NCBI RefSeq assembly: GCF_964204645.1
Contig: NC_134030.1
Coordinates: 17,050,110-17,114,109 of the forward strand
Length of the DNA: 64,000 bases
Source: Tubulanus polymorphus
Lineage: Eukaryota > Animalia > Nemertea
Direction: 5' to 3'
Program-made: the position numbers and the translations under genes
Shown: one piece after another, positions 1-56,856 of the stretch
Layout: every line of letters starts with the position of its first letter
Position numbering within the stretch: the first letter of the stretch is position 1
Notes under the pieces: model-generated
The model's database searches: none
The model's input: the letters and a program-made list of their open reading frames with translations, nothing else
What the model was told of the DNA's origin: nothing

Positions 1-178
1 TAAATTCATTTATATCTTTATATTTAACTAAATTTTGTGGGATTATCTTATCTAATTTATCTTGTTTTACTTTACGCCATATATTTTCAGTAGAAGAATA
101 AGTAACCGAACTCTCAGGGTTGTAATATAAATTTCTTAAATATTGTTCTTTAGTATTAGGAGTTTTTTTACCACCCAT
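1..178 (-). CDS. Polinton retroviral-like integrase, N-terminus (truncated by window edge)
   Basis: Manual translation from ATG at 178: MGGKKTPNTKEQYLRNLYYNPESSVTYSSTENIWRKVKQDKLDKIIPQNLVKYKDINEF, open to the edge. Fits the Polinton integrase N-terminal pattern L..(I/L)YY(D/N)P..S(F/Y)S....(L/I)(Y/W)..VK. The catalytic core is not in the window. Confidence 0.7.
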   Translation of the reverse strand, partial: MGGKKTPNTKEQYLRNLYYNPESSVTYSSTENIWRKVKQDKLDKIIPQNLVKYKDINEF

Positions 179-208
179 TTATATATCCTTAATTTTAACT
201 TTATATTT

Positions 209-1456
209 CTAATATTGAATACTATCTAATTGTGAATTTACAATATTTAATTGTGCGTCAGATATAATATAAATGTGCATTTTAAAATTTTTGATTCCTT
301 TTTTCTTTTTCATGAATAATTGTATTCCATCTTTAGTGTTCTGTAGTTTTTTCCCACAACCATGTAATGAATTATCCTCTGTTGTTCTAAAATCTAACCA
401 TAATGCATATTTATTGCCGGTATAATAATCAATTTGATTAATATTACAATTTTCAAATGATTTTACTTTTTCATTCATAAAATGTTTTCTAATTTCTGGC
501 CATTGATCTATCATTCTCATTCCCTGACAAAATATTTTATTTGCTATTCCTTCGATAGTTATTTCTACTTTTGTTATTTCAGGATTATAATAATTATCAA
601 CCTTTATTGCGCCATTAGAATATGTTGCAATTGTAAAAAATATTAATATACCTTTAATAGATCTTCTTGGGAAGTTAATATTCTCATTAATCATTTCATC
701 ATTTGCATTAATAGTTACAGTTTTAAATTTATCAATATAATCATATAATGATGAAAATCCTTGATTGTATTGAGTTTGAATTGTGCTAGCAATATTTTCA
801 TTAGTAACTGTGTCATATTCTAAACATATATTCGATAATTTATAACCCATATCTTTAACAACGCTAGATAATACAATTTCATTAACAGGAGCAAATGTTA
901 TCTCAAATGTAATATCTTCTTGAATTGCGTATTTATATAAAGGTGCATTATTATTTATCAATTCAAAGTCTAATGGAATTTTATATTTGCTTCCATAAAT
1001 CTTTTTAATCAAATTATCTGTGGCACGAGTTACTATTGCGTCATTAGCTCCTGATCTTAATTTATTATGGTTTTCCGATTGAATACCCTGAAATATCATA
1101 TTATTTCTATTTTCTTTAGTTAACCATAAATCTTTATAATGCATAAATAAATTATAATCATCTAATGAGAAAACTGTTTCCGGACCAATCTTTATAGTTA
1201 ATTTTTTAATCAAATATCTTCCAACATTATCAACAACATAATTGTTATCATGGCCAGTTACTTTTATATCGGCTGATAAATAAATACTATTTGGAACATA
1301 AAAAGTATTTTGTGTTAATCTATGAATTCTAACATATAAAGTTTCACCAGGATTAATATTTGAAGGGTTATTAGTAATTATCTGATGTGATCTTTCTGCT
1401 TTAATAGCATTAGATATTCTAGAAATCTTAGAAGGACTTATATAACTCCCACTCAT
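209..1456 (-). CDS. Major capsid protein (double jelly-roll/hexon-like) of the Polinton
   Basis: 415 aa, beta-rich. The N-terminal KAERSHQIITNNPSNINPGETLYVRI and C-terminal ALWLDFRTTEDNSLHGCG..LQNTKDGIQL resemble invertebrate Polinton MCPs; size and position fit. Confidence 0.75.
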   Translation of the reverse strand: MSGSYISPSKISRISNAIKAERSHQIITNNPSNINPGETLYVRIHRLTQNTFYVPNSIYLSADIKVTGHDNNYVVDNVGRYLIKKLTIKIGPETVFSLDDYNLFMHYKDLWLTKENRNNMIFQGIQSENHNKLRSGANDAIVTRATDNLIKKIYGSKYKIPLDFELINNNAPLYKYAIQEDITFEITFAPVNEIVLSSVVKDMGYKLSNICLEYDTVTNENIASTIQTQYNQGFSSLYDYIDKFKTVTINANDEMINENINFPRRSIKGILIFFTIATYSNGAIKVDNYYNPEITKVEITIEGIANKIFCQGMRMIDQWPEIRKHFMNEKVKSFENCNINQIDYYTGNKYALWLDFRTTEDNSLHGCGKKLQNTKDGIQLFMKKKKGIKNFKMHIYIISDAQLNIVNSQLDSIQY

Positions 1457-1480
1457 TTATTAAACAAAAAAATTAATTGT

Positions 1481-2946
1481 TTATTTTTTATTATTTTTTT
1501 CTTGATATCTTTTTGATATCATATTCACTAACCCAAAAATAATAGCACTTACAACTGTAATTAAAAATAAAATAATATGTTCAGCAGCAAAGTTAAGAAT
1601 ATTCCCAGCAGATTTCAATATAAAACCAACAATTGATGCAATAATTCCTGGTAATGCTGCAGCAGATTTTTTAGATAGTTCCCATAAATATTTTGCTAAT
1701 TTCTTTAAACCATCCTTAACTTTATCTTGTATAGAATTATTATCATTCGGGGGTTTATCCGGTTTATTGGGAGTAGGAGTAGATTTCAAAGCATTTGATA
1801 TTGCTAAACCAATTGGTGTAAATAACATAGTTACAGCTGTTAGAATTGAAAGAATTGTTATTCCTTCTAATTTAAATAATAACTTTATTCTATCTTTCAG
1901 TGATATTTCAGAATTTGGTTTTATCAATAAATCTTTAAAAATAACTTTTAATCTATTTATATTATAATCATATGATTTTAATGATAATTTAATTTCTTCT
2001 TTTTGTACTTCTAAATTATCCTTTAAATTATTAATTTCTTTTTCTAAATATGCATTTCTTTTTTTAAATTCGATTTCTTCAATAACTTTATTATCTCTAT
2101 CTAATTTTAATTGTTCTATTTCTTTATTTTTATCAGTTAATTCTTTTTCCAAATACATAATTTTTTGATCTCTTATACTTTTATTATGCGCAATTTTATC
2201 AGATGCAAGTCTTATACTAATAATTTCTCTAATTGCTTTATCAGAAAATATATCTAAATCTTCTAATTCTTGATCTGTTGCATCAAGTAATCCATTCGGT
2301 AAAAGTTTTTCAATTGGAACTTTATTTGATTTAAGTTTACTATTTTTGGAAGTTATATTCTGTTCAGAAGTTGTTTCTGTTTCTGATTTCTTTTTGATTA
2401 TTTCAAATAATTCATTAATTCTTTGTTTAAATACGTCTATATTATCATCTATATTATCATTTCTTTTTGTGTAACATCAGTTATTTCATTACTATTACTT
2501 ATTATTTTAATTCTATCTGGTTTTAATTTTTCTAAAGTTGATTCTGATAATATTTTATTTTCATTATTTTTATAAGTGATATCAATATAATAATCACCTT
2601 TCAAACGATAATAACATTTACCATTATCTAAAAATTTTAATTGATCTGCTAAAAGTCCAACGTCTTCATCATTTATGTTAAGTTTAGATTTTTCAATTAA
2701 ATCTTCTAATTTAGGTATTTTGTTTAAATTATCTAAATCTTGTTTTACTAAATCTGGGTCTAAATTTTCAGGATTTAATTGTGATTCAGCATTTTTAATA
2801 TAATCAGGCATATTCAAATTATTATTGTATTCTGGCTCATTACCATCATTAAAACTTGTTTCATCAAAATCAGGTGGTTGTTCATCAGTTATGCCAGGTT
2901 CATCAAAATTATCAATTCCAATATCTTCTCCACCCTCTACATCCAT
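1481..2946 (-). pseudogene. Coiled-coil plus C-terminal multi-helix membrane protein, split by a frameshift near 2462-2468 (ORFs 2449-2946 and 1481-2158 are one gene)
   Basis: The frame of 1481-2158 stays open upstream to about 2461 (NDNIDDNIDVFKQRINELFE...RDQKI|MYLEK). Only the ATG at 2946 has the shared upstream motif. Hydrophobic helices GITILSILTAVTMLF and LPGIIASIVGFIL. Confidence 0.7.
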
Positions 2947-2962
2947 TTATATAATAAAAAAA

Positions 2963-3976
2963 TTAAAATTTAAAATATAATATTCCTCCGATTACAATTC
3001 CTATACAAGTTAAAGCTAATTTAGTATTTTCATGGGATTTATTATCATTATCAGTTTTAATTATATCATGTTGAATATTATCAGTTTTAATATTTTCTGT
3101 AGTATTGTAATCTTTTATTTTGGAATCATTATCCAATTTAATATTCTTAGTTTTAGTTTCTGTTGATTGAATATGTTTTTTATTTTTTTCACCTTCCATT
3201 AATTTTGGAGCAGTAATTATCTTTTTATTTATATCATTCAATCCAAATGAATTATTTATTGTTGCAGTTTTAATTAGATTATTATAACCAATTATGTTTC
3301 CCATCTTTAATACTAAATCATTAGAAATAATTAATAGATTAGGGCCTATACAATAATTTAATCTAATATGTGATTTATCTAAATAATTTTGATATCTTAC
3401 AATGTTTTCTGGAATCGATCTATTTTTATCATTATGTATGGAATCTTCAAATAATACTTTGAATTGTTTCTGCGTATCAAATGATGTATTTAAATTTCCA
3501 ATTATTGGGGATCTTGTTTCAACTTGTGCACCTAGAATACATATCAAATAAGTTCTAATAGATTGATTTATTCTTTGTATACCTGATTTTGTAAAACCTT
3601 CATTATTTTCTAAAATGAAATAAACCCAACCATTATTGTTTTCTTGTTTTAAATTATCATAAAATGTCGGTAATTTATTGAAATTTAATGTTTCTAAATC
3701 CTTAGTTTCTATTTTACCATAACCTAATTTATTACTATAGATATTATACAAACTATTAGATGGTATGGGAAGTGTTGCTAGAAATGTTATTAAGGAACTA
3801 ATTGTAACCGAACCACTTATAATCAAATAATATATAATTTTACTTTTTAGATATTTTTTCTTTTTTATCTTTAAGTCACTTTCAAATTCTAATATTTGTT
3901 TTTCTAAATATATTTTTAATTTAGTTTTATTTATATCATGAGGAATAATATCAATATTATCAACTTTATCTTCCAT
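2963..3976 (-). CDS. Polinton hypothetical protein with N-proximal and C-terminal transmembrane segments
   Basis: 337-aa ORF with the shared upstream motif; hydrophobic IIYYLIISGSVTISSLITFLA and C-terminal LALTCIGIVIGGILYF. Confidence 0.7.
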   Translation of the reverse strand: MEDKVDNIDIIPHDINKTKLKIYLEKQILEFESDLKIKKKKYLKSKIIYYLIISGSVTISSLITFLATLPIPSNSLYNIYSNKLGYGKIETKDLETLNFNKLPTFYDNLKQENNNGWVYFILENNEGFTKSGIQRINQSIRTYLICILGAQVETRSPIIGNLNTSFDTQKQFKVLFEDSIHNDKNRSIPENIVRYQNYLDKSHIRLNYCIGPNLLIISNDLVLKMGNIIGYNNLIKTATINNSFGLNDINKKIITAPKLMEGEKNKKHIQSTETKTKNIKLDNDSKIKDYNTTENIKTDNIQHDIIKTDNDNKSHENTKLALTCIGIVIGGILYFKF

Positions 3977-3995
3977 TTATTTAGCAAAAAAATTA

Positions 3996-4418
3996 CTAAT
4001 TAGTAAACTTATAAGCAACAAATATAACAATAACAGTTCCGCCTAAAATCCAAATTATCTTATATTTCTTCTGTTCATTACTTGGGGTATAATAATCTGA
4101 TAATTTAGGTTTGTATAGATGTAATTTTTCTTTATTTGTTACCGCGTTATATAAACTCATTGCATCATCGACTGATTGAAAATCTCTATGTGAAATCTTC
4201 TGATCATATAATTCTTTATTGATATAATCCATATAGTTTTGTCTCTTTTCTCTATATTCTTCTGCAGCTTTATTATATTTCTCTAACGCTAAGTTATGTC
4301 TTCTTTGTTCTCCTAATGAACTATTTTTATCAATATGTTTAAATAAATAACCACCACCAGTAAATGCTAAAGCGTTAACAATTGCTGATCCTATAATAGT
4401 TATAATTGCAGAAGCCAT
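3996..4418 (-). CDS. Polinton small membrane-anchored coiled-coil protein
   Basis: 140 aa; hydrophobic N- and C-termini around a charged helix (EQRRHNLALEKY); shared upstream motif. Confidence 0.75.
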   Translation of the reverse strand: MASAIITIIGSAIVNALAFTGGGYLFKHIDKNSSLGEQRRHNLALEKYNKAAEEYREKRQNYMDYINKELYDQKISHRDFQSVDDAMSLYNAVTNKEKLHLYKPKLSDYYTPSNEQKKYKIIWILGGTVIVIFVAYKFTN

Positions 4419-4443
4419 TTATTTAGCAAAAAAAATTACGCAT

Positions 4444-4665
4444 TTATATGGGAGGAATATATTTTTGTTTTTCCAAATAATCAATAGTTAAATTAGATAA
4501 AGTAACTGCTAATGTTAATTTTAAAATATCATTTATATCAAATCTATCAACATTAACACTTCCCATTTTGAATACTTTTTTTAATACCATTGAATAACCA
4601 ACAGTTCCAACTGATAGTAAGGCGCCATTATATAATCCAGTTATTATCCACTTATTATCACTCAT
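4444..4665 (-). CDS. Polinton small hydrophobic protein
   Basis: 73 aa with two hydrophobic helices; the ATG directly follows the TAA of the upstream gene (TAAATG). Confidence 0.7.
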   Translation of the reverse strand: MSDNKWIITGLYNGALLSVGTVGYSMVLKKVFKMGSVNVDRFDINDILKLTLAVTLSNLTIDYLEKQKYIPPI

Positions 4666-5022
4666 TTATTTATCAAAAGAATTACTATCATCAAAATATT
4701 TAGTTATCTTATTTATGATTAATTCAACATTTATTTCATTACTAGTTTCATTTGTATATATTTCAATTATTATTTTTTTAATATCATCTACAATAAAACC
4801 TTCATCTAATTCATAAAATCTTAAAGATTCTCCAATTAAATTAGTAATCTTTTCTACATTTAAAGTTTCTTTATCTATTGTTGTTTTATACTCAAATGTT
4901 GTTTCATTAGAAAATTCAATATTTTTGATATGTGTAATTACATCATTAATGTTAAATTTCATTTCTTTCTCACATTTAAAATCAAATCCAAAACATATAC
5001 TCGGTCCAACAGTTATATTCAT
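4666..5022 (-). CDS. Polinton hypothetical acidic protein
   Basis: 118-aa ORF, tightly packed, with the shared upstream motif. Confidence 0.6.
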   Translation of the reverse strand: MNITVGPSICFGFDFKCEKEMKFNINDVITHIKNIEFSNETTFEYKTTIDKETLNVEKITNLIGESLRFYELDEGFIVDDIKKIIIEIYTNETSNEINVELIINKITKYFDDSNSFDK

Positions 5023-5038
5023 TTATATAATGAAAAAA

Positions 5039-5797
5039 TTACTCTTTACATCTTATAACTAATTCATAAATTACAGGAAAGTTATTCAAATCAATTAAAT
5101 ATCCATTATGATTTCTTATTTCTAATTTAAAATTATTGAAATGTGGAATACAAGGTTTGAAATCACATTCATATAAATTATAATTTATTTGAGTTCCAAA
5201 TTGTTTGACATTTTTTAATGGTAAAATATTTAATAAACCAGAATTACAAATTGTATCTTTAGTTGCTTCAAATGTTTTTGTTGGGTCAATCAAATTGCAA
5301 TAAATATAAAAATGTGTAAAAGGTATTAAGTTTGATCTACCTTCTGCGTATGCTGTAACAATATCTGGGTTAATTCCTAACAGTTTACCTAAAGGTTTTC
5401 TTACTGTAAATTTAAATTGTTCGTCATTAGCTAACCTAATCTTTATTTTATTAGAACTATCACTTTTTAAAATTCTAATACTAAATCCGGAATCACTTCC
5501 TAATTTAGCTCGAGCTTTTCTATTAATTTCTTGTGCTAATGTATCTAAATTATATAATCCTGGTTTTAAATATAAAAAAAACCATTTATTCCTTTTTTTG
5601 TAAAAGATTGAAAAAATTAAATGTTCTAGACTTTTATCCGATACATTATAAAAAGAATTACATCAACTTATATTTACTAATTTTAAATCAACACAATTCT
5701 TAAATTCTCTATCTAATTGAACTATTAAATTACGAGATTTATAATTTGTAAGTTTTCTAGAATCAACAAATATTCTGTATTCTTTTAATTCTACCAT
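5039..5797 (-). pseudogene. Minor capsid (penton, single jelly-roll)-like gene with a premature TGA at 5663-5665
   Basis: Manual translation from ATG 5797 is in frame with ORF 5039-5293: MVELKEYRIFVDSR...VNIS*CNSFYNV...LKPGLYNLDTL...LGKLLGI...FYIYCNLID...FKLEIRNHNGYLIDLNNFPVIYELVIR. These are penton-like motifs; about 252 codons with a single stop. Confidence 0.75.
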
Positions 5798-5865
5798 TAT
5801 TTATAACATAAAAAAATTACCGCTCATCACTAAAAATTAATTTTAATAAAATTTTTCCTTAATAA

Positions 5866-7182
5866 ATGGATGAGAAGATAGCATGCAAAATTTGTGGTGA
5901 ACTTCTAAGAAAAAGTAATATGGCTCGACATATGAAAAAACATGATGAAAATTATAAACCCCCTAAACTAAACTGTCCAAAATGTAATAAATTATTCTCA
6001 AGAAATTATGTTAAAAAACATTCAGAGAAGTGTAGAATTAATGGCGCAACGGCTAATGTTGATAGTAATGACTGTAATAGTAATTCTGCCGAAGTTGAAC
6101 CTGAAGTTATTTGGAAAAGACCTTTCTTATTCTATGATAAGGATAATATAAAAGATCATTTCTGTGAGCCTTGTCGAATAAAATATAGCCCTGAAAATAT
6201 AGAAGATTGGGAGAATCATCAATTTCGTAAAGTACATATAGATAAAATTTCTAATAAATTTGAAACTGAATTCAATGAAAGAAAAAATAATTTATTAGAA
6301 AAAATAAAATATGAGAAAACGTTACCAGATAATAAAGAAACAGTTGAAAAGTTAGAAAAACAATATAATGAATTAACAAGAAAATCATATTATTGTAAAT
6401 ATTGTAAATTGATTATTACAACAAGTAATTCAAATCTACATAATAGAACAATAAAACATAAAGAAAACGTAAGAAAATACCAAGAGCTTAATGAAGATCT
6501 ATTACCAATAAATTATAAACGAAAATGTCCACAATGTAGTTATGCGACCTTAAGACAAGAAGGTACTGTGTTATTTTGTAATGAATGTGGATGGCAAAAG
6601 AATTTATTGGGTGAAGAAAAAACTAGAAATTTTCTCTTAGATCCAAAATTAAATTATCTTGATGAAATTTTTAAAATATTTTCTATAGAAGATCATACAC
6701 CAGAATATATGCAATGGCTTGAAAAAATGAAAATAATAGAAAATGAAAATGGTGAAATAACTAAAAAAGATATTATAAAAACAATTATTCCATCAACATT
6801 TAACACAAAACAAAAGAAAATGTATTTATATTTATTATTTAACGATTATTATGAAAAACCTAAATTAACAGAAGAAGATATGAAAAATATAAAAAAAATA
6901 TTCAAACAAATATTAATGTATCATTTGGAAAATAGAATAACAGATTCAATAAATTATGAATTCTTTTTAAATAAGATTGTAAATTATTTAAACATAGATA
7001 TTATAATTCCATTTGATGAATTAACAAACAAAAAGAAACAAAGAGAGCGAGATGAAATGTGGAACAAGGTAGAACTTTATTTAAATGAGAAAAATGAAAT
7101 GGAGGAAGAACCTAAACAATTAAATGAAAATGAAGAAGCCAATAGTGATTTAGATTATGATGATATTGATTTTATGTTTTAA
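5866..7182 (+). CDS. Multi-zinc-finger protein with a C-terminal VLTF3-like (NCLDV late transcription factor 3) domain
   Basis: C2H2-type fingers (CKICG..HMKKH, CPKC..H..C, CEPC..H..H, CKYC..H..H), a C4 ribbon CPQC-x13-CNECG, then PKLTEE..KKIFKQI..NYEFFLNKIVNYL..KKQRERDEMWNKV, which resembles the VLTF3 C-terminal consensus. Confidence 0.7.
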   Translation: MDEKIACKICGELLRKSNMARHMKKHDENYKPPKLNCPKCNKLFSRNYVKKHSEKCRINGATANVDSNDCNSNSAEVEPEVIWKRPFLFYDKDNIKDHFCEPCRIKYSPENIEDWENHQFRKVHIDKISNKFETEFNERKNNLLEKIKYEKTLPDNKETVEKLEKQYNELTRKSYYCKYCKLIITTSNSNLHNRTIKHKENVRKYQELNEDLLPINYKRKCPQCSYATLRQEGTVLFCNECGWQKNLLGEEKTRNFLLDPKLNYLDEIFKIFSIEDHTPEYMQWLEKMKIIENENGEITKKDIIKTIIPSTFNTKQKKMYLYLLFNDYYEKPKLTEEDMKNIKKIFKQILMYHLENRITDSINYEFFLNKIVNYLNIDIIIPFDELTNKKKQRERDEMWNKVELYLNEKNEMEEEPKQLNENEEANSDLDYDDIDFMF

Positions 7183-10100
7183 TGACCATAAGGTAATGTT
7201 TTTATACCATCATCTAAAATATGCCTTTTATCATCAAATGGATTTAAACTAGTTTTTTCAACTTCATTAATGTACATCTCATGATCTTCTGATCTTAAAC
7301 AATTCATTTTATGTTTCATTACAATTGATTTATATAAACACTTTATATAATCTTGAAATTCTATAAATTCTACAACCACATGTTTTGTTATTCCTTTTAA
7401 CTTTTTAGCTTCGTGATCTTTTGTTCTGTAACTATACATTTTACTTCTTATCCCAACAAATTCAATCATTTCATCACCCCCTAATTCATCTTTAAATTTA
7501 CCAGGAATCTTTTTATTATCATTGCTAAATAGTTCATGATCTTTGGGATAATTGCTAAAATCAAAATGATGTTTTAATGTTTTTAAGTCTTTTGTTATGT
7601 CATTTGTCTTGATTTTTAGTATGTAACTGTCGGTATTTTTTTGGATTAATGGGAACCCAGAATTGAATGTTCCATCATCTGTTGATAAATCATAAACATA
7701 ATCTGTTGGGTTATATATTTCAAATAAATCTTTAACTTCTTCTGTTAATTCTTTTTCTACATGCCTTAAATTAAAACAATTTGGTTTAGATTTAATTAAT
7801 TCTATATTCATATTAAATCCTAATGAACTGCATAATATATTTAATCCTGATATAGCAACTTTTCCTTTCTGTGCAAATGTTATCTTTTTATCCTTTGTAA
7901 ATTTTTTAGTGCCATCTGCGGCATAGAATCCAATGAAGAACCACTTTCTTAAATTATTTTTTGCATTTAATACATAATCTGGTACTATCTTTTCTTTTGT
8001 TGAAGTATTACTTTTCACTATTGCATGAATATAGAATTCATCATTATATTTTATAGCAAAATCTTTAGGATTATTCACATGTATTCTATAACATTGCGAT
8101 GATTTCATAACATCTATGATTTTGAATGTTTTATGTGAATAAACTTCTTCACAGAATTTCTTAATTCTTTCTAATAATTTTAAGTCTTGATTGCATAAAT
8201 ACCAACAATATTTTTTACCCCAAACATAATTATACACACCTGCTGAACCATCACCCAGGAAAAATCCTTTGATAAAATATTCTTTTTCTTCTAATGTTTC
8301 GGGTTCTATATTATAAATATTATCAATTATTTCATCAAATGACATATGATTCATTCTTTGGAAAAATCTTTTATGTAATAATTCATCTCCAATTTTTATA
8401 CCAGTTGGTTTTATTTCATCACCATTTCGTTTAATTAAATTATGATCTTCTGTAACATCTACAAATCCTAATTTAGTTCTAACTCTATAGATTTTCTTAT
8501 TTGTTTTATGTCTAATAATATTCTTTAATTTTTTCCATCCATTTCTTGTCCAAACATCCATTAATCCATTTATTTGTATTAATTCTTTTTCACCATATGA
8601 AATATAACATTCATTTTGTTTTGGAATTATTTCTGAAATTCTTCTTATCAATATTTTATCATTACATTTTAATAATATTGGGGTGTCAGCTGTTACAGAA
8701 TCAAAATATAATATTTCAATATGCTTTTCCCCAAAAAGTGGTTGTAAAACATTATAATAAAAATCATACATTAATAATTTTGATACTTCTAAAACAGTCG
8801 AACCAATAAATATAGGTTTATTAAATTTCATTAACGTTCTTTTTAATTTAACTGCTGTTAAATAATCTTCAAATCTTTTATTTCCTAAATGTCTAGGACT
8901 TGATTGTAAATGTCTTAATCGTTCAGAATTATTTACTAATTCAATATCATTTCTATTTCTAATATTTTCGCATGTTTTACCATAAAAACTATTATTCATT
9001 AATTTGAAGAAATCTTTTTCAAAATCTGTTTTTGATATTGTTCTCTGTTGAGTATTGAAATCTATATATTTTTCTAACCACTTCGATTGATTAAATTCAA
9101 TATATCTATGTACTTTCTTTAATTTCATTCCTTGTTTTAGATAAAATTTTAACATTCTATAATGAACAATATAATTGTATTTATTATTTTGAGTAAGTAT
9201 TAATTTTTCTGTAAAAACATGATCTTTCGGTTTTATTTTCTTCTGGTATTCACTTAAATAACTATCATCTACAGTTAAATGTTCTGGGCAATAAGGTAAG
9301 TTTCTTGTTTTAAACTTTATATTTTCAGGATATTCTAAATCAACTACAAAGAAATAACCAATTGGTGCTTCATCTTTTAAACTCGCAATTGCGCTTTCCC
9401 AATCAGTTTTGTTATCATTTTCAACTTCTGTTAATATAAAATTTTTATATGGTTGAGGTTGCATCATTGCCCAACCATATAAATTATTGGCGTCAATATA
9501 TAATAATTTATATTCATCATTTGCTTTAAAATACCTATCTCCCATAACACCACTAATTCCACCTCTAATTGATTTTTCAAATAATAAAACCATATCTGGT
9601 TCTTTTAATAAATCTAATTCTACATTTGTATATTTGAAACCACATTGCCGGGTTAAACGAGGACTAGAGTAGCAATAACAAGGATCAACATTAAAATGAT
9701 TCAAATTAACTTCTCTAAATTTTTCAAATATGTCAGCCAATATCATAACATCTGATTTTAAATATAAATCAACTAATTCGCCATGATTTTTCATCTTAAA
9801 ATGGTTCCAAATATTTAATGTTCTATTAAACACTTCGTCTTTCACATACTCCTCTTTTAATTGATCATAAAATTGATCTTTTAATAATTCTGTTACATTA
9901 AAATCATCATGTGTTTTGTAAAATGAATAAGGAATTGCACCTTTATATCTCAATAATTTAAAATCTTGTTCATTTGGATAATAATATCGAGTTATAACAA
10001 AATCATTATCAACTAAACTTTTTGATAAATTATCTAATGAACTTGCTAGAAATCTATAAGAATCTAAAAATCTAATGCAACCAAATTGAAATGAAATATA

Positions 10101-12239
10101 ATTTTCAGATGTTTTAGCTAATAGTTTAAAATCATATTTTCTTACATTTGCTTCATTCATAGCATTATATTCTTCTATTTCTTGATTAATTGCGCCCAAT
10201 TTTCCCGATAATTGTTTTATAAATAGATGGGTATCATATCCTGATAAATTATGAAATAATATTGGTACGAAATTTACTTTTTTAGCTTGTAAATTGCAAT
10301 CTTCATGAGCAGCTCCACGATATTTTGAATTCAAATGATCATGATCTCTAACTTTTTTATCAAATGAATAAAAACGTTTTTCACAATAACAACAATGAGT
10401 TGCATAATTAAAATCAATTTCATCTTCTTTTGTCATAACTATTCTTTTATTTTTGTTTAATAATTTTGCAAAATCACTTTCTAATTCAATCATTTTGTCA
10501 CAAAAATCATTAACTACATTTTCACCTCTAAAAGAAATATATTGACTTTCATATAATTCAGGATAATTTGATTTTATATAAATTCCATAAGCAGCAGCTC
10601 TTTGATGAACTTTTTTAATTGTATTTATAATTGGTGGGTCTTGAATTGTGTCTTCATTTAATTCATTTCCTTTATCCATTGATTTTAATAATTGCTTTTT
10701 GTTATATATTTCTTTTCTATCTTGATCAGTTAATTCTTTATTCAACGATTCAAAATCCCCATAAATTACAAATGGAACAATATTTTTAAATTTATGATCA
10801 GTAAATTTCAATTTATAATCTTTTTCTGTTGGCATTATTAATTTACAAAAATCTTTATTATCACATAATTCTTTATGTTTTAGTAACGCATTCTCAGTTC
10901 TAAATTTAGATAAACATTTTCTACATAGATAAATTTTATGGCTGTTAAAATCACTTTCTGTTCTAAAGAATAAATCAATTTGTTTTAACCACATATGATG
11001 TTCATTTTCATCTTTTTTGTAATATAACAAATCTATAGCATTTTCATCATCATAATATTCTGTTAAATATAAAGCTTCCAATGTATAATCTTTAATATTT
11101 TCACCTTTTGTCTTTGGTAATTGCATTAATTCGAATACATTTATTTTTAACTTATTAATTTTTTCTATTTTGGGTATCATTTTTATAGTTACTGGATATT
11201 GATCAATTTTATATAATGTTTCATATTTCCGATAATCTGTTATTCTACAAACATTTTCCTGTGTTGGATGTAAGCAACTAATAATTGACCATAGAAAACA
11301 TTTATTATCTTCATTTTGAATATTTATTACTGCTTTTGTCGTAAATGGTAATTTAATATAAGATGATGCTTTAATATCCTTTTCTGTTGTAAAGTTTGAA
11401 TCATTTTTAAACATTGTTTTACTTTTTGATGTTTTATTTCTTTTTGTATTGTAAACATTTAAATCTAAATATATAATTTCATTCAATGTTAAGCCAGAAC
11501 CCTCAAAATATCTTTCTTCAATATGACGTTTAAATCCATTAAATATTTTTTCTAACTTCTCTTTTATTTGTGTTTTTGAAATTATTTCTTCAGAGTGTGT
11601 TTGAATATTATAATTCATTTTTTCTTCTGACTTTATAAAACTTACTTTCCCAGAGATACTAATTTTTGGATATTCAACATCTGTTATCAAATCTAGTATT
11701 TTTTCTACTATTTCATTAAATTTACTATAATCTTCTATTGTTGTACCTTTAAAGAATCTAAATATAATAGCCGCAGGACCAATTTTACTATGTAATGTTT
11801 CTAAAATTTCAATTGTATCTTTTATTTCTAGTGAATCAATATAATTTCTAACATTTTCCGTGTAAGGTTTATTTGAAATGGATTTAGTTTTTGAAGTTGG
11901 TTTTTTTACTTTTTGAGGTTTATCATCGAAATAATCTTTTCCTAAAACATTATTACTCAAATTTTGATGGTGTTTTTGTGATTCGAGATGTCTGTTATAA
12001 TTCCTTTTTACTATAAATTCATTACAAACTTCACATTTTATTATATCCACATTCATATTTTCTAATCGTTCTTTTCTTTCATTGGAATTTTCTGGAGTTT
12101 CAAAATCTATTACATTTTTTATATGATTTGAAGACTTTTCATGACGCGATTTTTGAGATTTATCAATGTATTTTTTACAATATGGACAATGATATTGATT
12201 TTCATTAACATCAATTTGTTCTGTCTTATTCTCTTCCAT
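7179..12239 (-). CDS. polB: Protein-primed family B DNA polymerase (pPolB) precursor with intein; about 1331 aa after splicing
   Basis: ExoI VIYGDFES, ExoII FHNLSGYD, ExoIII YLKSDV, motif A YIDANNLYGWAM, motif B KLMNNSFYGK, motif C YFD|TDS split by the intein, and C-terminal GKFKDE/SKMY/KGI/FDDKR typical of Polinton pPolB. Confidence 0.96.
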   Translation of the reverse strand: MEENKTEQIDVNENQYHCPYCKKYIDKSQKSRHEKSSNHIKNVIDFETPENSNERKERLENMNVDIIKCEVCNEFIVKRNYNRHLESQKHHQNLSNNVLGKDYFDDKPQKVKKPTSKTKSISNKPYTENVRNYIDSLEIKDTIEILETLHSKIGPAAIIFRFFKGTTIEDYSKFNEIVEKILDLITDVEYPKISISGKVSFIKSEEKMNYNIQTHSEEIISKTQIKEKLEKIFNGFKRHIEERYFEGSGLTLNEIIYLDLNVYNTKRNKTSKSKTMFKNDSNFTTEKDIKASSYIKLPFTTKAVINIQNEDNKCFLWSIISCLHPTQENVCRITDYRKYETLYKIDQYPVTIKMIPKIEKINKLKINVFELMQLPKTKGENIKDYTLEALYLTEYYDDENAIDLLYYKKDENEHHMWLKQIDLFFRTESDFNSHKIYLCRKCLSKFRTENALLKHKELCDNKDFCKLIMPTEKDYKLKFTDHKFKNIVPFVIYGDFESLNKELTDQDRKEIYNKKQLLKSMDKGNELNEDTIQDPPIINTIKKVHQRAAAYGIYIKSNYPELYESQYISFRGENVVNDFCDKMIELESDFAKLLNKNKRIVMTKEDEIDFNYATHCCYCEKRFYSFDKKVRDHDHLNSKYRGAAHEDCNLQAKKVNFVPILFHNLSGYDTHLFIKQLSGKLGAINQEIEEYNAMNEANVRKYDFKLLAKTSENYISFQFGCIRFLDSYRFLASSLDNLSKSLVDNDFVITRYYYPNEQDFKLLRYKGAIPYSFYKTHDDFNVTELLKDQFYDQLKEEYVKDEVFNRTLNIWNHFKMKNHGELVDLYLKSDVMILADIFEKFREVNLNHFNVDPCYCYSSPRLTRQCGFKYTNVELDLLKEPDMVLLFEKSIRGGISGVMGDRYFKANDEYKLLYIDANNLYGWAMMQPQPYKNFILTEVENDNKTDWESAIASLKDEAPIGYFFVVDLEYPENIKFKTRNLPYCPEHLTVDDSYLSEYQKKIKPKDHVFTEKLILTQNNKYNYIVHYRMLKFYLKQGMKLKKVHRYIEFNQSKWLEKYIDFNTQQRTISKTDFEKDFFKLMNNSFYGKTCENIRNRNDIELVNNSERLRHLQSSPRHLGNKRFEDYLTAVKLKRTLMKFNKPIFIGSTVLEVSKLLMYDFYYNVLQPLFGEKHIEILYFDSVTADTPILLKCNDKILIRRISEIIPKQNECYISYGEKELIQINGLMDVWTRNGWKKLKNIIRHKTNKKIYRVRTKLGFVDVTEDHNLIKRNGDEIKPTGIKIGDELLHKRFFQRMNHMSFDEIIDNIYNIEPETLEEKEYFIKGFFLGDGSAGVYNYVWGKKYCWYLCNQDLKLLERIKKFCEEVYSHKTFKIIDVMKSSQCYRIHVNNPKDFAIKYNDEFYIHAIVKSNTSTKEKIVPDYVLNAKNNLRKWFFIGFYAADGTKKFTKDKKITFAQKGKVAISGLNILCSSLGFNMNIELIKSKPNCFNLRHVEKELTEEVKDLFEIYNPTDYVYDLSTDDGTFNSGFPLIQKNTDSYILKIKTNDITKDLKTLKHHFDFSNYPKDHELFSNDNKKIPGKFKDELGGDEMIEFVGIRSKMYSYRTKDHEAKKLKGITKHVVVEFIEFQDYIKCLYKSIVMKHKMNCLRSEDHEMYINEVEKTSLNPFDDKRHILDDGIKTLPYGH
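7635..8699 (-). mobile_element. Intein (355 aa) with LAGLIDADG homing endonuclease, inserted at the PolB motif C (pol-c) site
   Basis: Starts Ser (YFD/SVTADTP), block B VDVTEDH, LAGLIDADG motifs FIKGFFLGDGS and FFIGFYAADGT, block F YVYDLST, ends KN followed by +1 Thr (TDS). Removal restores YFDTDS. Confidence 0.95.
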
Positions 12240-12262
12240 TTATAAGGAAAAAAAATTACTTG
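12240..12262 (-). promoter_or_regulatory. Representative copy of the shared viral upstream motif TAATTTTTT-N(3-7)-ATAAATG
   Basis: Minus strand reads agtaatttttttttccttataaATG before polB. Near-identical context precedes the ATGs at 1456, 2946, 3976, 4418, 5022 and 5797. Confidence 0.7.
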
Positions 12263-12561
12263 TGGTGATGAGTGGGGATTACTTCCCCCTGTATATAACA
12301 AGCGCGCTATTAACCGTTCTCACCCAAGCCTCACAGCATCTATTTATCCGGGTACAGTTGACACGCAATCACTGTACTACTACAGTAATAGCACAGTACA
12401 GAGACTCACTGTATCGATCTATCCACGCGCAGTTGTTGTTACGCGCACTCACTGTATATGTGTGTCACAGAGCAATCGTCCGTTCTCACTAGAGCCTAGC
12501 TGTGATGAGTGGTGTCTCGACCTCTCGACCTCTGATCTGAAAACGCCATCTTCTAATTACT
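12263..12561. repeat. Probable Polinton terminal inverted repeat (partner copy outside the window)
   Basis: Non-coding and more GC-rich than the element body, with short internal repeats (actcactgtat x2, ctcgacct x2). Ends ...ttctaattact at 12561. Confidence 0.55.
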
Positions 12562-12859
12562 TTCGGCTAGTGACCTCTTCATGGCCAAAAATTATACAGA
12601 ACAGAAAGTAGTTACTTCCGAAAGATTTTTCTCTGGAATCGTGCCGGAAATTTCCGGAGGATTTTTTTCCGAAGTATTTCTGGCCGGAGGTCAGATTTCA
12701 GGAGGATTCTTTTCTGGAAGATATCTGGCTGGGGTGATGGGGTGGGCAGAATCCCGGAGGATGTCTTTCCGGAAATTTCCGGATGGTTAGTTGTTAGAAG
12801 TGTTAGGGTTTAGGGGTTAGGGTTTCGATTATAAGGTTTTAAATGCGTTAGGTTTTAGA

Positions 12860-15800
12860 GCATTATGAGAATGCCGGTTTGCTAGCGTATCTATTTAACA
12901 CCCGTATTGCTCGGGTTAGTTTTACTATCAACGGGTGGCGCTGTATGTAAATTTCACATAAATCAAAGACTTTCGGCTATTTCCACTTGAAAACATCATA
13001 GTCATACGGTTGTAGTGAACATAAAAAGATACAGTACAAAGATACAGTACGGTGTACGGACATGATTCCATAGGACCCATACCAGAGACATTTTGTTCAG
13101 ACAAGGACTATATAGTTAAACACTAATCTTCATTTTCAGCAATTAACGATCTGGTGAATTAATTAGTGATTCGGTCTTTCGGTGGTTCGAGATAAAATGC
13201 CCGCAAAATAAGAACCTAACGAACCAGGGCTGACCACAAATTGCCCAACAGATAAATTTTCGAAACGACACAATCCAATCATGTTTGGTATCAAATGTGG
13301 CGTGGACCATGGTCTTTTAACTGACCAATGCATGACCAGTACTGACCATATAGTAAATTATTTGTTTGCAAACAATTAAGTTGTTTGGTGTCAAATAACT
13401 AGATATGATGTGGGCATTAATCTAAAAATTGTTTAACTGACCAATGCTTGACTAGTACAGACCAGTTACCAGTGCTAACCAGAACTCCCCATAAGTAATT
13501 TATATGTTTAGTGAATCCTTCGTTAGTACTACTAGCTCTTACATTTAAATTTGTCGCTTGAAAAAGTCTTGTCCGATTTTTGTTGTAGGTAGCGAGCTAA
13601 CTTTGAAATTCCGCTAAAATGCATACGATTTTTACGTAGGGTTTTGAACGAACAACGTTTCCATTTGTAATTGTAACGTGCGCATTTGAGCCTGTAACGT
13701 GCACATTTCACTCGCGTGAACGTGCGTATCGGTACCAACGTGCGAGACTTGTCAAACTTTTACGATCAAGACTTTTAAACTGAACAAAGAAGATGTCATA
13801 TCATATTATATATACATGAATAGATGGAATGATAATGTAGTAGTTTTAAATGTTTCGTAGCTGCTGTCCACTGACCACAGATAAAAGCTAATTGCCTGAT
13901 ATGAAATATATTTTTGTTATAGAGATGTAGTAGATCAGTGAGAATTCAAACTTATGGTTAATTTTGAGTGATCACAACGCTAACCAATAGAGAAAGATGT
14001 AAGGCCTAAGAAAAGATGCATTAAGTATAACATATCTTTCAATATAATGATGAAGTATTCAACTGGCCATCACAACAATAGTTTGACTTATCTTAATGAA
14101 AAATACTGGAGTGTTAATGGGAAAACCTTGAATTCGAAACAATTCCACATTCAATTGTTTACTTTGAAAACACAATTTGCATTTTGTGGACATGTATTTT
14201 TTTCTGCACCAAAAGCATGAAGTATATTATCTTTGCTTGTAAAAATTTGAAATTTTGGGGAAGATTTTTGGCCTCGTTAACCTGTGATCACGTCCTTCAT
14301 ATATTTTCTAAGACCGACCCTTGAAATAATGCTGAGAGTTTCGAGGATAATTTTGGTAGGATGTAAACTTAGGCTGCTTCGTATCCGTGGAGGGTTGCTA
14401 ATTATTGATTCTATACACAATAATCATAAGTACCATGAGATTCGATAGAATATCGTTTTTCAATCATACGTACACGAATTATCGCGATATAAAGATAAAT
14501 AATATGTTCATATACTTTTTACGTCTTAAACTGTATATTTCTTCAGTAGTATAAATAAAGAGTGGATCAGCAGGCCACCTGAGACCATTCCACGATCTAA
14601 GGTCAGTTGCCAAAAGTTAGTAAGTTTACCAGTGGATAGTTAACATTTATAATGACAATTAAATTTTCATTGCTAAAATAACTTTGTACTTGTTGACTCA
14701 AAAGCAGAGAATTGAAAAAACGATAATACGATACGAAAACTCAGTGTACAAATTCAAAAAGATTATCTCTAGTGAGAGATCGAACGTTGTGTCGTAATTT
14801 TCTAATGATAAAACATGGTTTGAAATTTGAAATGTGTACATAGTTGATCTCTTTCAGTGTATTTAGTCATGTATCATATTGGATGATGGTTAATTTAAAC
14901 TATCTTTTGAGAAACGGGTCCCAGAGCTGTATCCTTTACTCCTGTAATAGAGGATGCAATCTATTTGCGACAAACAGCTAGTGCAAATAGCTAGAAAAGG
15001 TAACAATAGTGCATTGGCAAACTTAGAGCAAGCGTACATTGGTTGTTTAGGTTTTTCGAAGGGGTGAATTTGTGGGAAAATTAATCATTACTGAGATATA
15101 TCCGTGGCGAGCTTTTCCAGGGATTTAAAAAGTTGAGCTGTACACAAGGAATTTTGTGTAGTCCAATATCTGTGATTACCTCTGGCGTGGAGAGACACAA
15201 TCTAAAACCAACCCTAGAGTCAAATATTTTACCACAATTTTTTATGATCAATAAAAAGATTGAGTAATAGACATTCAAACAGTATTATCTAAATTCCACT
15301 CCATTTTAAACTCATTCATCTCTACACAAACTCCAACTTGTTGAACAGTCCACTTTAAAATTAGGGACCACTATTCTTGCTCATCTACACTGGCTACCAA
15401 TCTAACAAAGGATTAAATTTGAGTGTTTGATGTTATAACAATACCAGACTGAATTATGGATTCGGTTTCTACTTTTTAATTGAACATTTATATCACATAT
15501 TGGGCATCATTTTTACCAGTATATATGGAATAACCTATCCATATATCATGTTCAATTTTATATAATCTGACTTTTGAGATGTCATTCAATCAATGCATTC
15601 ACATGCGGTCGTCGCTTTCAATAGCCACCACGGACTGGCTCCTTATTATTTCTTTGGCGATACCATTGGCGGACGATCCCACACGTTTCTTGCTCCAGCC
15701 CTAGAATGCTCAATATTCGTCATGAACCCCGATTTGAATTTAAATTCAAAATACTCCCAAAACACGCCTGTTAACTAGATTACTCTAAAACACCTTTATG

Positions 15801-37063: not shown

Positions 37064-39660
37064 CTAAGATATCTTCGAAACCTCCGCGACTTTGATCCAT
37101 ACAAAGAAAAATCTAAATATACGACCTCCAAAGGCTCCGATGTAACGATAGGAATCAATCGCTTGTTGGGTAGGGGTACTTGCATCAAACACTATAGCAA
37201 TCTCTGACTGGGGAACTACGACTTTCAACGACTCAACGCCATCCTCAAAGACCGTCCGACACAGAAAGCAATCACTTAAACAAAGCGAATCCGCAAAACG
37301 TTGCCACTTTCGATCCAAATGAGAAAACAGACGATATCGCCCCGTTCTAGTAATCTGTCCAATATTTCTACTCGGATCAGAGTCTAACTCTTGCGCGGCG
37401 ACCATACACCTCCGGCCAACTCCCAAGGCTTCAAAATCCTGTTAGGGATTAACAGACGGAAGAGGAAATGCAAAAACAGACTGACAAACGGCATGGACGT
37501 CATCGAGGATACACACTTACGACTCAAGGCATCAGCATCCACGTTGGATTTGCCGGAAATATACTCTAAAGTTAAATCGCAAATGGCTAAACACTGTAAC
37601 CAGCGATGGCTGGTCGCATCCTGTAAGGTTAACGGATTCGAGTCCGTTTTGACACACATACATTACCGTACAAGTAGTCATTAAGGGCCTCAGACAATGA
37701 CCACTTGAGAGCCAGAAATTCCAACTTGTGGACCGGATAATTTCTCTCGATGGTTTAAGGCCGTGGAGCTATGAGTCGTAATTTTCTTTCCTGAGCAGGC
37801 CCCTAACCCACCCAGACTCGCATCGGTATGTAGTTCGAAAGGTAAGGAATAATCAACATACGCCAAAACTGGCGGTTCAGATGATAACTCCTTCAATTGA
37901 TCAAAAGTGGACTGCTGAGCCTCGGATTCCCCTTCAAAAGTTCGTTTAGTGGCTTCGCTATTTTGGCAAAACCCTTTATAAACCGCCGGTAGTAAGAAGC
38001 GAATCCCATGAAACTCAGAACTTCACTTACGGATGTGGGGGTTTTCCACGCTCTAATGGTTTTAGTCTTTTCAGGGTCAGGCTCGATACCCGCCTCGGAA
38101 ACTACGCGGCCAAGGTGAAGAACTTTCTCCTGGAAGAACGAACATTTCGACAGTTTTAAGTTTCAGGCCAGCATTTTTCAGCTTCTGGAAAACATTGTCT
38201 AACGGCACTAGATGTTCAATCGAGGCCGAAAATACGATGATGTCATCGATATAAACGAGACACTCTTTCAACGAAAGATCACCGAGGCTTCGCTCCATTA
38301 AGCGTTGGAATGTAGCCGGAGCGCCGGTAAGTCCAAAAGGCATTACCTCACACTCATAAAATCGGAAACCTGGGCCAACGTTGAAAGCAGTGTATTGCTT
38401 ATTCTCCTCGTCCATCTGAACTTGCCAATAGCTGGATTTTAGATCCAGGCAAGAAAAATATCGGGAACCATAGAGGGCGTAAAGTTGCTCGTCAATGCGA
38501 GGCAAACAATAGCGTTCTGGGATAGTACGTTTATTTAATTCCTGGTAGTGGATACAAAATGGCAGCTCACCGGTCTTCTTTCTGACTAAAACTACCGGTG
38601 ACGCAAATGCGCTGGATGACGCTTTTATAACCCCAACCTCGAGCATCATACGGAGATGGTCCCTAACCTCATCCACCATACCAGGCGGAATTCTACGATA
38701 CCGCTGATTTATCAGAGTGGTATCCGTGAGATTAATCTTATGCTCATTTAGATGAGTGTGTCCAAGGTCAAAATCACTAATTGAGAAAATAGACTGCCTT
38801 GCCCACAAGAGATTCATAAGCCTCTCCCTGGCTTCGTCCACAATCGTGGACCAGATCCATACGATCCTCTAAACTGATTTTGTCCAGCTGGCCGGGGAGT
38901 GGGAACCCAATTCCGATAGACAGGTCTTTCCGCAACCTGTTTCACGGTTTTGGAAAGCTTTTCAATTTCAGCCGAAACTTTGCAAAAGCCTCCTCCCATC
39001 CCGGGGAACCCGAACCTGGAGGTTGAGGCCTCTGAACTGGAGCCTGAACTGAAGCGATGGTTTTCCTTCCAGAAACGACGTTACCGGACTCCTGTTCACA
39101 TTCAGCCTTCCGCGCTTCCTTGACCACGTCATTATATGAAGCTTTTGTCTGAAAAAGATGGTTCTCTTCCAAAGAATAAACCTCACCGGATATCAAAGAG
39201 AACTTATCCAAGACCTGATCCATATCGGCATCTTCTCCAGCATTAAACAGAACCCCCACTGCACCCCCGCACAAAGACCTTCTCATTACCATGCGAATTT
39301 GCGTCATTATATGAAGCTTTTGTCTGAAAAAGATATCGGTTACAGCCGCCAGGCAAACACCTAATCTTCCCCATGAGGTTATCGAGATGGCAAGACCACT
39401 GACTAATGGTTTCCATTGCCTACTGCATCGAAACATAAAACTGCCGGAGACTCTCTTCCTAAGAATAAACCTCACCTGATATCAAAGAGAACTTATCCAA
39501 GACCTGATCCATATCGGCATCTTCTCCAGCATTAAACAGAACCCCCACTGCGCCCCAACGCAAAGACCTTCTCATTGCCATGAGAATTTGCGACCTGGAA
39601 TAGTTGGGATCCTTCTGGAGTGCCCTAACTTCAATTTTCCACTGCTGGAAGGTTGATTCA
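37064..39660 (-). mobile_element. Decayed Ty3/Gypsy retrotransposon internal region (PNMA-like gag, RT, RNase H)
   Basis: RT motifs FASPVVLVRKK, LDLKSSYWQ, MPFGLTGAPATFQR, YIDD (38077-38841); RNase H ELHTDAS and GKSNVDADALSR; many frameshifts; internal duplication in gag (about 39130-39600). No LTRs seen. Confidence 0.9.
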
Positions 39661-54726: not shown

Positions 54727-56856
54727 AAACTTAATCGGAAGGTTTGATTTTCTTAATGATGCCTGTTTGGGGATCAAACTCAACAGTTGATTTAAATGGC
54801 AGGATATCGAAGATATCATCCAAAATGATAAGACCTAATGAATCAATTAAGAAAGTATTGTCAATTGATAAATTGGTCGGAGAAGTAACTATCTTGATAG
54901 TTTCTGCATCATCTCCAATGCCTTTAATGAATAACTCTTTAGATGTTGGTGCAGCCGCTTCAACCTAGGGGAAAAAGAAATTACATAAGCTGACTATTAG
55001 TAGATGCTATATGATAATGTGAACAAAGTATAGGAAAAGAAGAGCAAAGGTAAGAGACATACCACAAAATCATCAGGTCTATTAACTGACAAAATATTTT
55101 GATTATCACGGTTGTCATCAGGGTGTCACTAAACCTAAGACCCCCTAAACCTAAGACCTAAGACCCGTTAGGTCTTATGTTTAGGGGGTCTTAGGTTTAG
55201 TGACACCTATATATAATATACTAAACCTAAGACCCATAAACCTAAGACCCAAAAGTACACAAATAATGATTTAGAGTCGGGTCTTAGGTTTATGGGTCTT
55301 AGGTTTAGTGACACCTATATAATATACTAAACCTAAGACCCATAAACCTTAGACCCCCAAATATCTCGTCTCTGATAAATAAAATACTATACTATACTAG
55401 GTTTATTAGGTTATTTAGGTTTATTACCCGACTCTAAATCATTATTTGTGTACTTTAGACTATTCAAAATGGTTCTAATATATAGATATTAGTTAAAATG
55501 ATCCATCGATGGCCTATTTAAATTTGGTTCATTTATCAGAGACGAGATATTTGGGGGTCTTAGGTTTATGGGTCTTAGGTTTAGTATATTATATATAGGT
55601 GTCACTAAACCTAAGACCCATAAACATAAGACCTGGCTCTAATTCGTTATTTGTGTACTTTGGACGAGATATTTGGGGGTCTTAGGTTTATGGGTCTTAG
55701 GTTTAGTATATTATATATAGGTGTCACTAAACCTAAGACCCCCTAAATATAAGACCTAACGGGTCTTAGGTTTAGGGGGTCTTAGGTTTAGTGACACCCG
55801 TTGTCATCAGTAACCACGGCGTCTCTCACAAGGACATTATCCCCTGGATTAACAGTGACATTGGTAGCCGCATTCCACAATTTGATTTGTATCTCACCAG
55901 TGTTGTCTTTCACTTTTAGTTTTCAGACTTTGCCATTCTGATTATACAAATCTCCCTGTAGAAAAAGATATGAAATTTTGTTTGAATCTTGTATAGGCAG
56001 TAAAGGGTCCACAAATATAAGGGAAAATAAGATTGGAAGCGAATATATAAGCGAAGTTGATAACAGATCGGGTTTAGACATAAATATTAATACGTGTAAG
56101 TGTGTATATATGTATATATCTAAACATATCTGCCGATATAGTATTTTTTTTGTTGAAACTTTCGAGCCATGCATATAGTTTATCATATTACATGTATATC
56201 AGTGCTAGTTTTTTTCTCACTTTGTAACATGTATGTATGTATAAATTTCAGTCACAAACAGTGCAATTGTTTATACTGAATAAATATTTGAATTTGAATT
56301 TATAAAATTCAAATAAATTTCATTACTAAAATGAAAGAATATAAAATTTAAGCATTAATTGAATTATTCCTTACATTATCAAATTAAAGTCAATTTTATT
56401 CAAACGCAATGAGAAGAGTTTTAATTGATTCATAGTTAAAAACATACTCACACTTACAACTGTCCCCTTGAATGAAACTTTTCTCTTGCTGGGACTACTC
56501 AAAACTTCACCAGCTGAAATCACAGGATTCTCCGGAGCCTCGAAGATATCGGTAGCCTGCTTGAAGTCATCATCGGAGAGAGGTTCCGCCACACCAGTTT
56601 GAAATAGCTCATGGCTATTGAAAACCAATATAGAGGAACCTTCCAATTTTAATGTTTTAAAATGAATCTTACGATTTGGCTCGAAGAAGGAATAATATCG
56701 CTCGGGATAAACGAAGCATTTAAGAAAACTGCCATCAGATTTTCTGACAGTGGCTTTTATGTATGATACAGTGTTCTTGTTGAAACCACTCTACGATAAA
56801 ACCTTTGATTTTAACACAGCACATCGAAACTGCCGGAAGCCATTTGCATTGAGGAT
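54727..56856 (-). pseudogene. Spliced OB-fold (RPA/ssDNA-binding-like) pseudogene
   Basis: Exons about 56450-56856, 55062-55957 (interrupted) and 54727-54965 with GT-AG ends. Protein pieces KVSFKGTVVS and KLKVKDNTGEIQIKLWN..VNPGDNVLVRDAVV are OB-fold-like; in-frame stops present. Confidence 0.55.
55121..55799. mobile_element. Foldback/Mutator-like MITE built from taaacctaagacc repeats, 10-bp TSD
   Basis: TIR gggtgtcactaaacctaagaccccctaaa; gttgtcatca duplicated at 55111-55120 and 55800-55809. Confidence 0.88.

Follow-up and report, generated by a model that had tools for sequence, protein, structure and literature searches.

A canonical LAGLIDADG-bearing intein in the protein-primed DNA polymerase of a Polinton-like element in the nemertean Tubulanus polymorphus

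How a complete intein came to lie within a DNA polymerase gene on an animal contig, and whether it can splice and still moves, is the question raised by a stretch of 64,000 nucleotides from Tubulanus polymorphus (NCBI RefSeq assembly GCF_964204645.1, contig NC_134030.1, positions 17,050,110 to 17,114,109 of the forward strand), which is called the window throughout. Canonical inteins are placed by surveys in prokaryotes, fungi, protists, plastids, and large DNA viruses. Iridoviridae infect animals. An intein in an animal-infecting virus is not in itself new: inteins are contained in Iridoviridae according to the available part of the survey by Green et al. (2018, PMC5784728). That part of the survey assigns nuclear inteins to fungi, algae, amoebozoa, choanoflagellates, and an apusozoan, and viral inteins to four NCLDV families and unclassified viruses; no animal and no Polinton is named there. 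The reading preferred here, with a probability of roughly 0.8, is that a canonical and, by prediction, self-splicing intein resides in the PolB of a Polinton and has likely spread through the cutting and conversion of empty copies.

Anatomy of the insert and its host gene

The polymerase precursor is encoded by an open reading frame of 1686 aa (7179-12239, minus strand). Its residues 1181-1535 form an in-frame insert of 355 aa (7635..8699, minus), translated as 355 stop-free codons with Ser at the start and Lys-Asn at the end. The N-extein (residues 1-1180; 8700..12239, minus) terminates in YFD, and the C-extein (residues 1536-1686; 7179..7634, minus) starts with TDS, which holds both the Thr+1 nucleophile and the second catalytic Asp; the insert therefore splits the YFD|TDS motif of the polymerase. 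The borders are exact, as the three nearest polymerases, 71-73% identical over residues 780-1180, read YFDTDS without an insert.

The N-terminal Hint region (aa 1-110; 8370..8699, minus) contains Ser1 and the block-B residues TEDH (Thr83 to His86; 8442-8453). The LAGLIDADG endonuclease domain (aa 136-313; 7761..8294, minus) has fold matches to I-DmoI and PI-endonucleases, and both of its motifs keep their catalytic residue, namely Asp150 in motif 1 (GFFLGDG; 8247-8267, minus) and Asp262 in motif 2 (GFYAADG; 7911-7931, minus). The C-terminal Hint region (aa 321-355; 7635..7739, minus) carries the block-F Asp337 and the terminal Lys-Asn. The class-1 junction set is complete (Ser1, Asn355, and Thr+1), and Ser1, His86, Asp337, and Asn355 are invariant across 73 aligned relatives. 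Translation bears out what the preliminary description had reported of these residues, including both endonuclease Asp.

Profile searches with the intein scored above the cut-off for TIGR01445 intein_Nterm (30.2 bits against 24.5) and Pfam LAGLIDADG_3 (26.9 against 22.5), and under it for Pfam Intein_splicing (25 against 35.8). An AlphaFold2 model from 73 sequences (pLDDT 94) has a Hint plus endonuclease fold, and its top PDB matches are the intein-homing endonucleases TliVMA, PI-PkoII, PhoVMA, PI-PfuI, and PI-SceI. The archaeal PI-PkoII, PI-PfuI, and TliVMA, as well as PI-SceI, share with it the Hint and two-motif LAGLIDADG fold, but identity is 12-17%, the window's intein is more compact, and its host is different. 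A hedgehog-type Hint domain or a mini-intein was rejected, given the full nuclease domain and the terminal Asn and Thr+1. The insert is a canonical class-1 intein carrying a LAGLIDADG endonuclease at the pol-c site, and the earlier claim of a full intein splitting the catalytic motif is confirmed.

In class-1 splicing, Ser1 undergoes an N-O shift with the aid of the block-B His, the +1 nucleophile takes over the N-extein, and the terminal Asn cyclises. In the present protein, the N-O shift of Ser1 would be helped by the His of TEDH, Thr+1 would take over the N-extein, and Asn355 would then cyclise, restoring YFDTDS in the polymerase. The precursor would be inactive before splicing because the two Asp of the motif sit 355 residues apart. 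The penultimate residue of the intein is Lys and not the usual His. A His at this position is usual in class-1 inteins but not obligatory, and among 189 full relatives KN is found in 76 and HN in 93.

This Lys could nevertheless indicate a domesticated or non-splicing insert, that is, a Hint-nuclease that is retained or only cleaves, working as a switch, or as a weapon directed at competing elements or at a helper giant virus that has a similar site. Other nucleases are also fused in Polinton polymerases; HNH and VSR inserts are described in the available part of Jeong et al. (2023, PMC10748475), and Endonuclease_7 occurs in 21/29 relatives. The HNH and VSR inserts described there are stand-alone nucleases, whereas the window's intein combines a splicing domain with a position inside the catalytic motif. 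Against a non-splicing insert, the two Asp of the motif would stay apart, the junction nucleophiles are all conserved, and most relatives of the polymerase manage without an intein. A non-splicing role is considered very improbable, and the intein family is, as judged from sequence, very probably competent for splicing.

The class of the polymerase was decided by fold because the extein profile, when searched against PDB sequences, returned zinc fingers only. When residues 481-1180 were compared by Foldseek, the nine best matches were all phi29 polymerase (E 8e-12 to 1e-9), and RNA-primed PolBs ranked behind them at E 4e-4 or weaker. The modelled fold identifies the host protein as a protein-primed PolB, as the preliminary description had proposed. 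PF03175 is present in relatives of the polymerase, and the window protein itself has no PF03175 match.

The gene belongs to an AT-rich and gene-dense Polinton-like element (1..12560), the left end of which lies beyond the window and the right end at about 12540-12860, as judged with the help of multicopy depth and loose ends in the reads. GC is 21-26% over the first ~12 kb, whereas the remainder of the window has 31-47% GC and is rich in repeats. An open reading frame of 415 aa (209..1456, minus) is likely the capsid gene of the element, encoding a double jelly-roll (DJR) major capsid protein: its match to Pfam Capsid_N is weak (E 0.0095), its Atlas neighbours at 0.97-0.98 are viral clusters with a low recognition value, and in some of these DJR or Capsid_N families are found in 10-24% of members. 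The intein host is a viral gene within an endogenous element and not a host gene of the animal.

Several other features of the window were recorded. A zinc-finger open reading frame of 438 aa (5866-7182, plus) lies tail to tail with the polymerase gene; a suspected likeness of its C-terminal part to the poxviral late factor VLTF3 received no support from Pfam, PDB, or locus searches. Several small element genes at 1481-4665 appear frameshifted relative to most reads. Upstream of the polymerase, two short direct repeats enclose 237 bases (12264-12502) that are missing in 444 reads of other copies. In the flank of the element, decayed remains of reverse transcriptase (LTR-type by neighbours) and hAT-like transposase occupy 37690-39481, 48749-50203, and 57559-59629; among Atlas clusters, the hAT protein lies nearest to eukaryotic ones, chiefly of chordates, arthropods, or rotifers, but its recognition value falls short of the tool's threshold. 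By these flanking remains, the surrounding genome is likely that of an animal. At 50488-51169 and 55121-55799, tandem and inverted repeats are nested in two clusters, which are probably ends of non-autonomous elements. Rfam and tRNA scans gave no matches.

Relatives of the intein and its probable donor

Among the best 120 of 289 longer proteins that match the intein, the top six, and eight altogether, are protein-primed polymerases with 46-63% identity; the others are mostly RNA-primed PolBs (at most 41% over full length), along with some type II topoisomerases. An HMMER search gave 1979 relatives of the intein, 150 of them listed. From the fetched proteins, the 189 full inteins were extracted, including 16 from Polinton-type polymerases (near-copies counted) and nine from topoisomerases, the remainder being from RNA-primed PolBs or fragments. 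Insertion at YGD|TDS is found in 154/189. The nearest inteins lie in other Polintons, with 63% identity to the window's intein and then 41-49%, and PolB inteins of uncultured giant viruses and T4-like phages reach about 40-43%.

Intein trees were built from 75 of 168 non-redundant sequences (30 taken by class or tail, 20 by identity, and 25 at random) and, carefully, from 35 rows, with midpoint roots, no outgroup, and archaeal alleles absent. In both trees, all eight non-redundant Polinton inteins form one clade on a long branch (100/100), which joins 14 giant-virus-type and T4-like-phage PolB inteins at 97/92; the direction of the jump, towards Polintons, is accordingly read from the nested position that the clade takes with midpoint rooting. 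The inteins of the T4-like phage polymerases P0010, P0011, P0012, P0034, and P0282 fall in this sister group (PHROG 262, T4-like phage DNA polymerase, was checked for P0011 and P0034), and large phages are hence as close as giant viruses. Members such as P0013, P0016, P0011, and P0034 resemble the window's intein in their GxPL-type tail and KN or HN ends, but the Nucleocytoviricota and T4-like-phage hosts are RNA-primed PolBs. P0106 and P0395, T4-like by best match, group with other RNA-primed PolB inteins, and their label is probably wrong. An annotated phage collection yielded two weak matches to the intein (26-27%). DNA-pattern scans of viral and metagenome contigs, including GVMAG loci, gave a best full-length intein match of 41%; in one locus of those scans (L002), the host gene is an RNA-primed PolB.

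The preliminary description had likened the intein to that of Mimivirus PolB and had it homing across polymerase classes during co-infection. According to the available part of Ogata et al. (2005, PMC549080), the Mimivirus pol-c intein is indeed alike in site (YGD|TDS and YFD|TDS), in length (351 and 355 aa), in Ser1, Asn, and Thr+1, and in its LAGLIDADG domain. Membership in the giant-virus PolB intein family is upheld, and the top viral fold matches are polymerases of a phycodnavirus (30%), Megavirus courdo11 (27%), Pandoravirus (22-24%), and Marseillevirus (20%). Together with the GVMAG loci at 41%, these relationships would fit the idea that a giant virus akin to Mimivirus recently passed its intein straight to this element in a co-infected cell. 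However, the Mimiviridae representative, Megavirus courdo11, lies far below the 41-63% of Polinton inteins, which fall into one clade on a long branch, and GC3 of the intein (14%) matches that of the extein (12%). The Mimivirus case differs further in that the present host is a protein-primed Polinton polymerase and that alleles with and without the intein coexist in one organism. A recent direct jump is regarded as highly unlikely, and the single clade of all eight Polinton inteins points to another Polinton, not a giant virus, as the probable immediate donor.

The history proposed here would instead begin with one old jump into a Polinton from the pool of pol-c inteins in RNA-primed PolBs, to which giant viruses and large phages belong. 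The intein would then have resided there for long, being lost and re-invading repeatedly, mostly inside polymerase subgroups, and would have crossed at least once between the two deep groups of Polinton polymerases.

The same intein family is carried by other genes. Nine type II topoisomerases (P0067, P0095, P0100, P0104, P0110, P0113, P0115, P0121, and P0300) hold such inteins at DxD|TDG (one CDG), and these form one clade with a support of 99 in the 75-row tree; their sequences indicate a move into an unrelated gene with a look-alike motif. P0091, a Chloropicon primus protein that is named as the catalytic subunit of DNA polymerase delta and has a zf-C4pol domain, carries a same-family intein at YGD|TDS and is apparently the product of a nuclear host gene with a pol-c intein. 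Additionally, in several long proteins (P0271-P0281 and others) two or three separate regions match the intein, which suggests that they hold more than one intein of this family.

Full and empty alleles and possible traces of homing

Raw reads of the same organism from a different study (WGS run X7), in which integrated copies and free virus look alike, cover 30/30 bins of 1-14500 with many variant classes, indicating that the Polinton element is multicopy. Empty alleles are found in this run as three joints: 7634 to 8700 in 41 reads (25 starts), 7630 to 8696 in 26 reads, and 7626 to 8700 in 27 reads, where eight letters intervene. All three delete a net 1065 bases, which is the length of the intein, and they amount to 94 reads. 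Since raw reads both cover the intein and join 7634 to 8700, the insert is not an assembly artefact; a contaminant was likewise rejected, as the reads of another study span the intein and both junction forms. Depth, counted on both strands, is 144-266 within the intein against 286-727 in the flanks, which would put the full share of the related copies, very roughly, between a third and a half. Full and empty alleles of the intein coexist in one organism, and the intein-less sister Polintons envisaged by the preliminary description are present in the same organism.

Presence is also patchy among relatives. Within the best 120 of 4022 matches to the polymerase, the three nearest (71-73%) are empty and P0002 (56%) is full. 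The motif was placed in 116/130 polymerases, ten full and 106 empty, a frequency of full alleles that is overstated because the full ones were partly gathered via the intein search. Among viral-contig pPolB loci, 0/29 have an intein. An extein tree of 60 of the 116 polymerases, with ten full rows, requires 10 changes against a mean of 9.4 after shuffling, gain and loss being indistinguishable in these counts. The number is no lower than in shuffles, so full polymerases are scattered among empty relatives, and for almost all polymerases with an intein the closest relatives are empty.

A different account of this distribution would be that the intein entered once, in an ancestor, and has been inherited vertically ever since with obligatory splicing, the empty alleles being precise losses and homing being over. 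Such an account draws on the agreement of three intein subgroups with three extein subgroups (the window with P0002; P0003, P0004, and P0005; and the P0139 family with P0251), which speaks for long residence more than free mixing. The discordance between intein and extein trees expected by the preliminary description was not seen at this level, while its placement of the intein near giant-virus alleles held. Intein identity is also near extein identity for most pairs. P0006, which belongs to a deeply different protein-primed group, combines a 48% identical intein with a 19% identical N-extein, which speaks for movement between groups, yet its position outside the other seven Polinton inteins was not rejected by the AU test (p 0.068), in favour of vertical inheritance. 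Nevertheless, vertical inheritance demands loss in 106/116 near relatives and in 29/29 viral-contig loci, and it does not explain why the intein order (P0004, P0005) conflicts with the extein order (P0003, P0004). Moreover, both nuclease motifs are intact in 8/8 tabulated full Polinton inteins, whereas the homing-cycle model, in the available part of its description, predicts decay of the nuclease once empty targets run out (PMC1654191).

Variation between copies in the reads bears on the same issue. From the 40 best-supported of 543 variant rows, the 38 outside an alignment shift were classed. Among the listed variants, 15/19 between-copy variable sites in the intein are synonymous (19% expected, p 2e-8), as are 12/12 in the exteins, a pattern that indicates purifying selection on the intein family and that vertical inheritance with homing over leaves unexplained. 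The window's own intein copy appears to be in drift. Its private changes, at which at least 95% of reads differ, are non-synonymous in 4/4 listed cases, none of them catalytic; because of these changes and the frameshifted look of neighbouring genes, this copy may be decaying.

A further trace is found in the P0003 cluster, for which the 15 listed of 136 members comprise seven full copies, six empty copies, and two fragments short of the site. Outside the region of the site, five of the six empties show 98.4-99.6% identity to the full copies, and the sixth shows 95%. All nine residues that divide the seven full from the six empty copies, over 1091 columns, lie between -7 and +44 of the site. 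Of 22 flank residues in the full copies, 17-18 match sister subfamilies and 12-14 match their own empties. Such a foreign flank tract, for which vertical inheritance provides no explanation, is the sequence footprint expected of co-conversion from a sister donor; its columns are linked and count as one event, which ordinary recombination, or divergence on the side of the empties, could also have produced. In the P0007 cluster, a full copy and an empty one share their flanks and have 99.6% identity.

The empty sites themselves differ between clades. After the site, 43/57 empties of the P0003/P0004/P0005 clade, the most invaded one, read CDS, TDA, or CDN, against 2/49 in other clades and 0/29 viral-contig loci, the rows counted (proteins P0162-P0228 and relatives) being related and not independent. 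To judge from these residues, the changes of TDS in empty alleles may be an escape from the intein nuclease. Overall, a single entry followed by vertical inheritance is unlikely, and movement of the intein between Polintons by homing is the probable course.

A possible homing cycle in Polintons and its meaning

In the homing cycle, as given in the available part of its description, the endonuclease cuts the empty allele and repair from a full copy converts the site (PMC1654191). In the present system, the freed endonuclease would cut an empty site, and repair from a full copy would transfer the intein together with some flank. The multicopy element would provide the empty targets, either inside one nucleus or during co-replication. 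Whether homing is still under way in this host is evenly balanced. That a live homing cycle operates in animal nuclear genomes, crosses two deep polymerase groups, and drives escape at the polymerase active site is a tentative proposal, somewhat short of an even chance.

Comparable systems have been described outside animals. In algal and protist nuclear contigs and in Anaeramoeba, virus-borne inteins reside in nuclear genomes and intragenomic spread has been inferred (Gallot-Lavallee et al. 2023, PMC10710043); those cases differ from the present one in that the organisms are protists or algae and the polymerases are of giant-virus type, and the available part of that article mentions neither polintons nor animals. 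For Polinton polymerases, the available part of Krupovic et al. (2024, PMC11161782), citing Jeong, suggests intein invasion as the origin of nuclease inserts, and the words "intein", "Hint", and "LAGLIDADG" are absent from the available part of Jeong et al. (2023, PMC10748475). In the openly accessible literature on inteins, Polintons, Mavericks, adintoviruses, and endogenous viral elements, no intein was found to be reported from a Polinton or from another protein-primed polymerase. The available parts of Starrett et al. (PMC8502044), Barreat and Katzourakis (PMC8097293), and a 2026 preprint (10.64898/2026.10.13.758929) contain no Polinton intein, and nothing contrary appears in those of PMC10710043, PMC12220804, PMC7765530, PMC13768754, and PMC5718144.

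With this intein, the pol-c allele reaches a third polymerase class, and Polintons become linked through gene flow with giant viruses or large phages. The guess that inteins invade Polinton polymerases thereby receives direct support. Because many copies offer full and empty targets next to one another, single genomes allow the homing cycle, co-conversion, and target escape to be followed. The intein and its meganuclease constitute a family that has presumably evolved for work in animal cells, and if splicing gates the polymerase, it would be a possible control point for the activity of the element. If live homing proves true, a natural intein and homing endonuclease would for the first time be known to act on the DNA of animal cells themselves.
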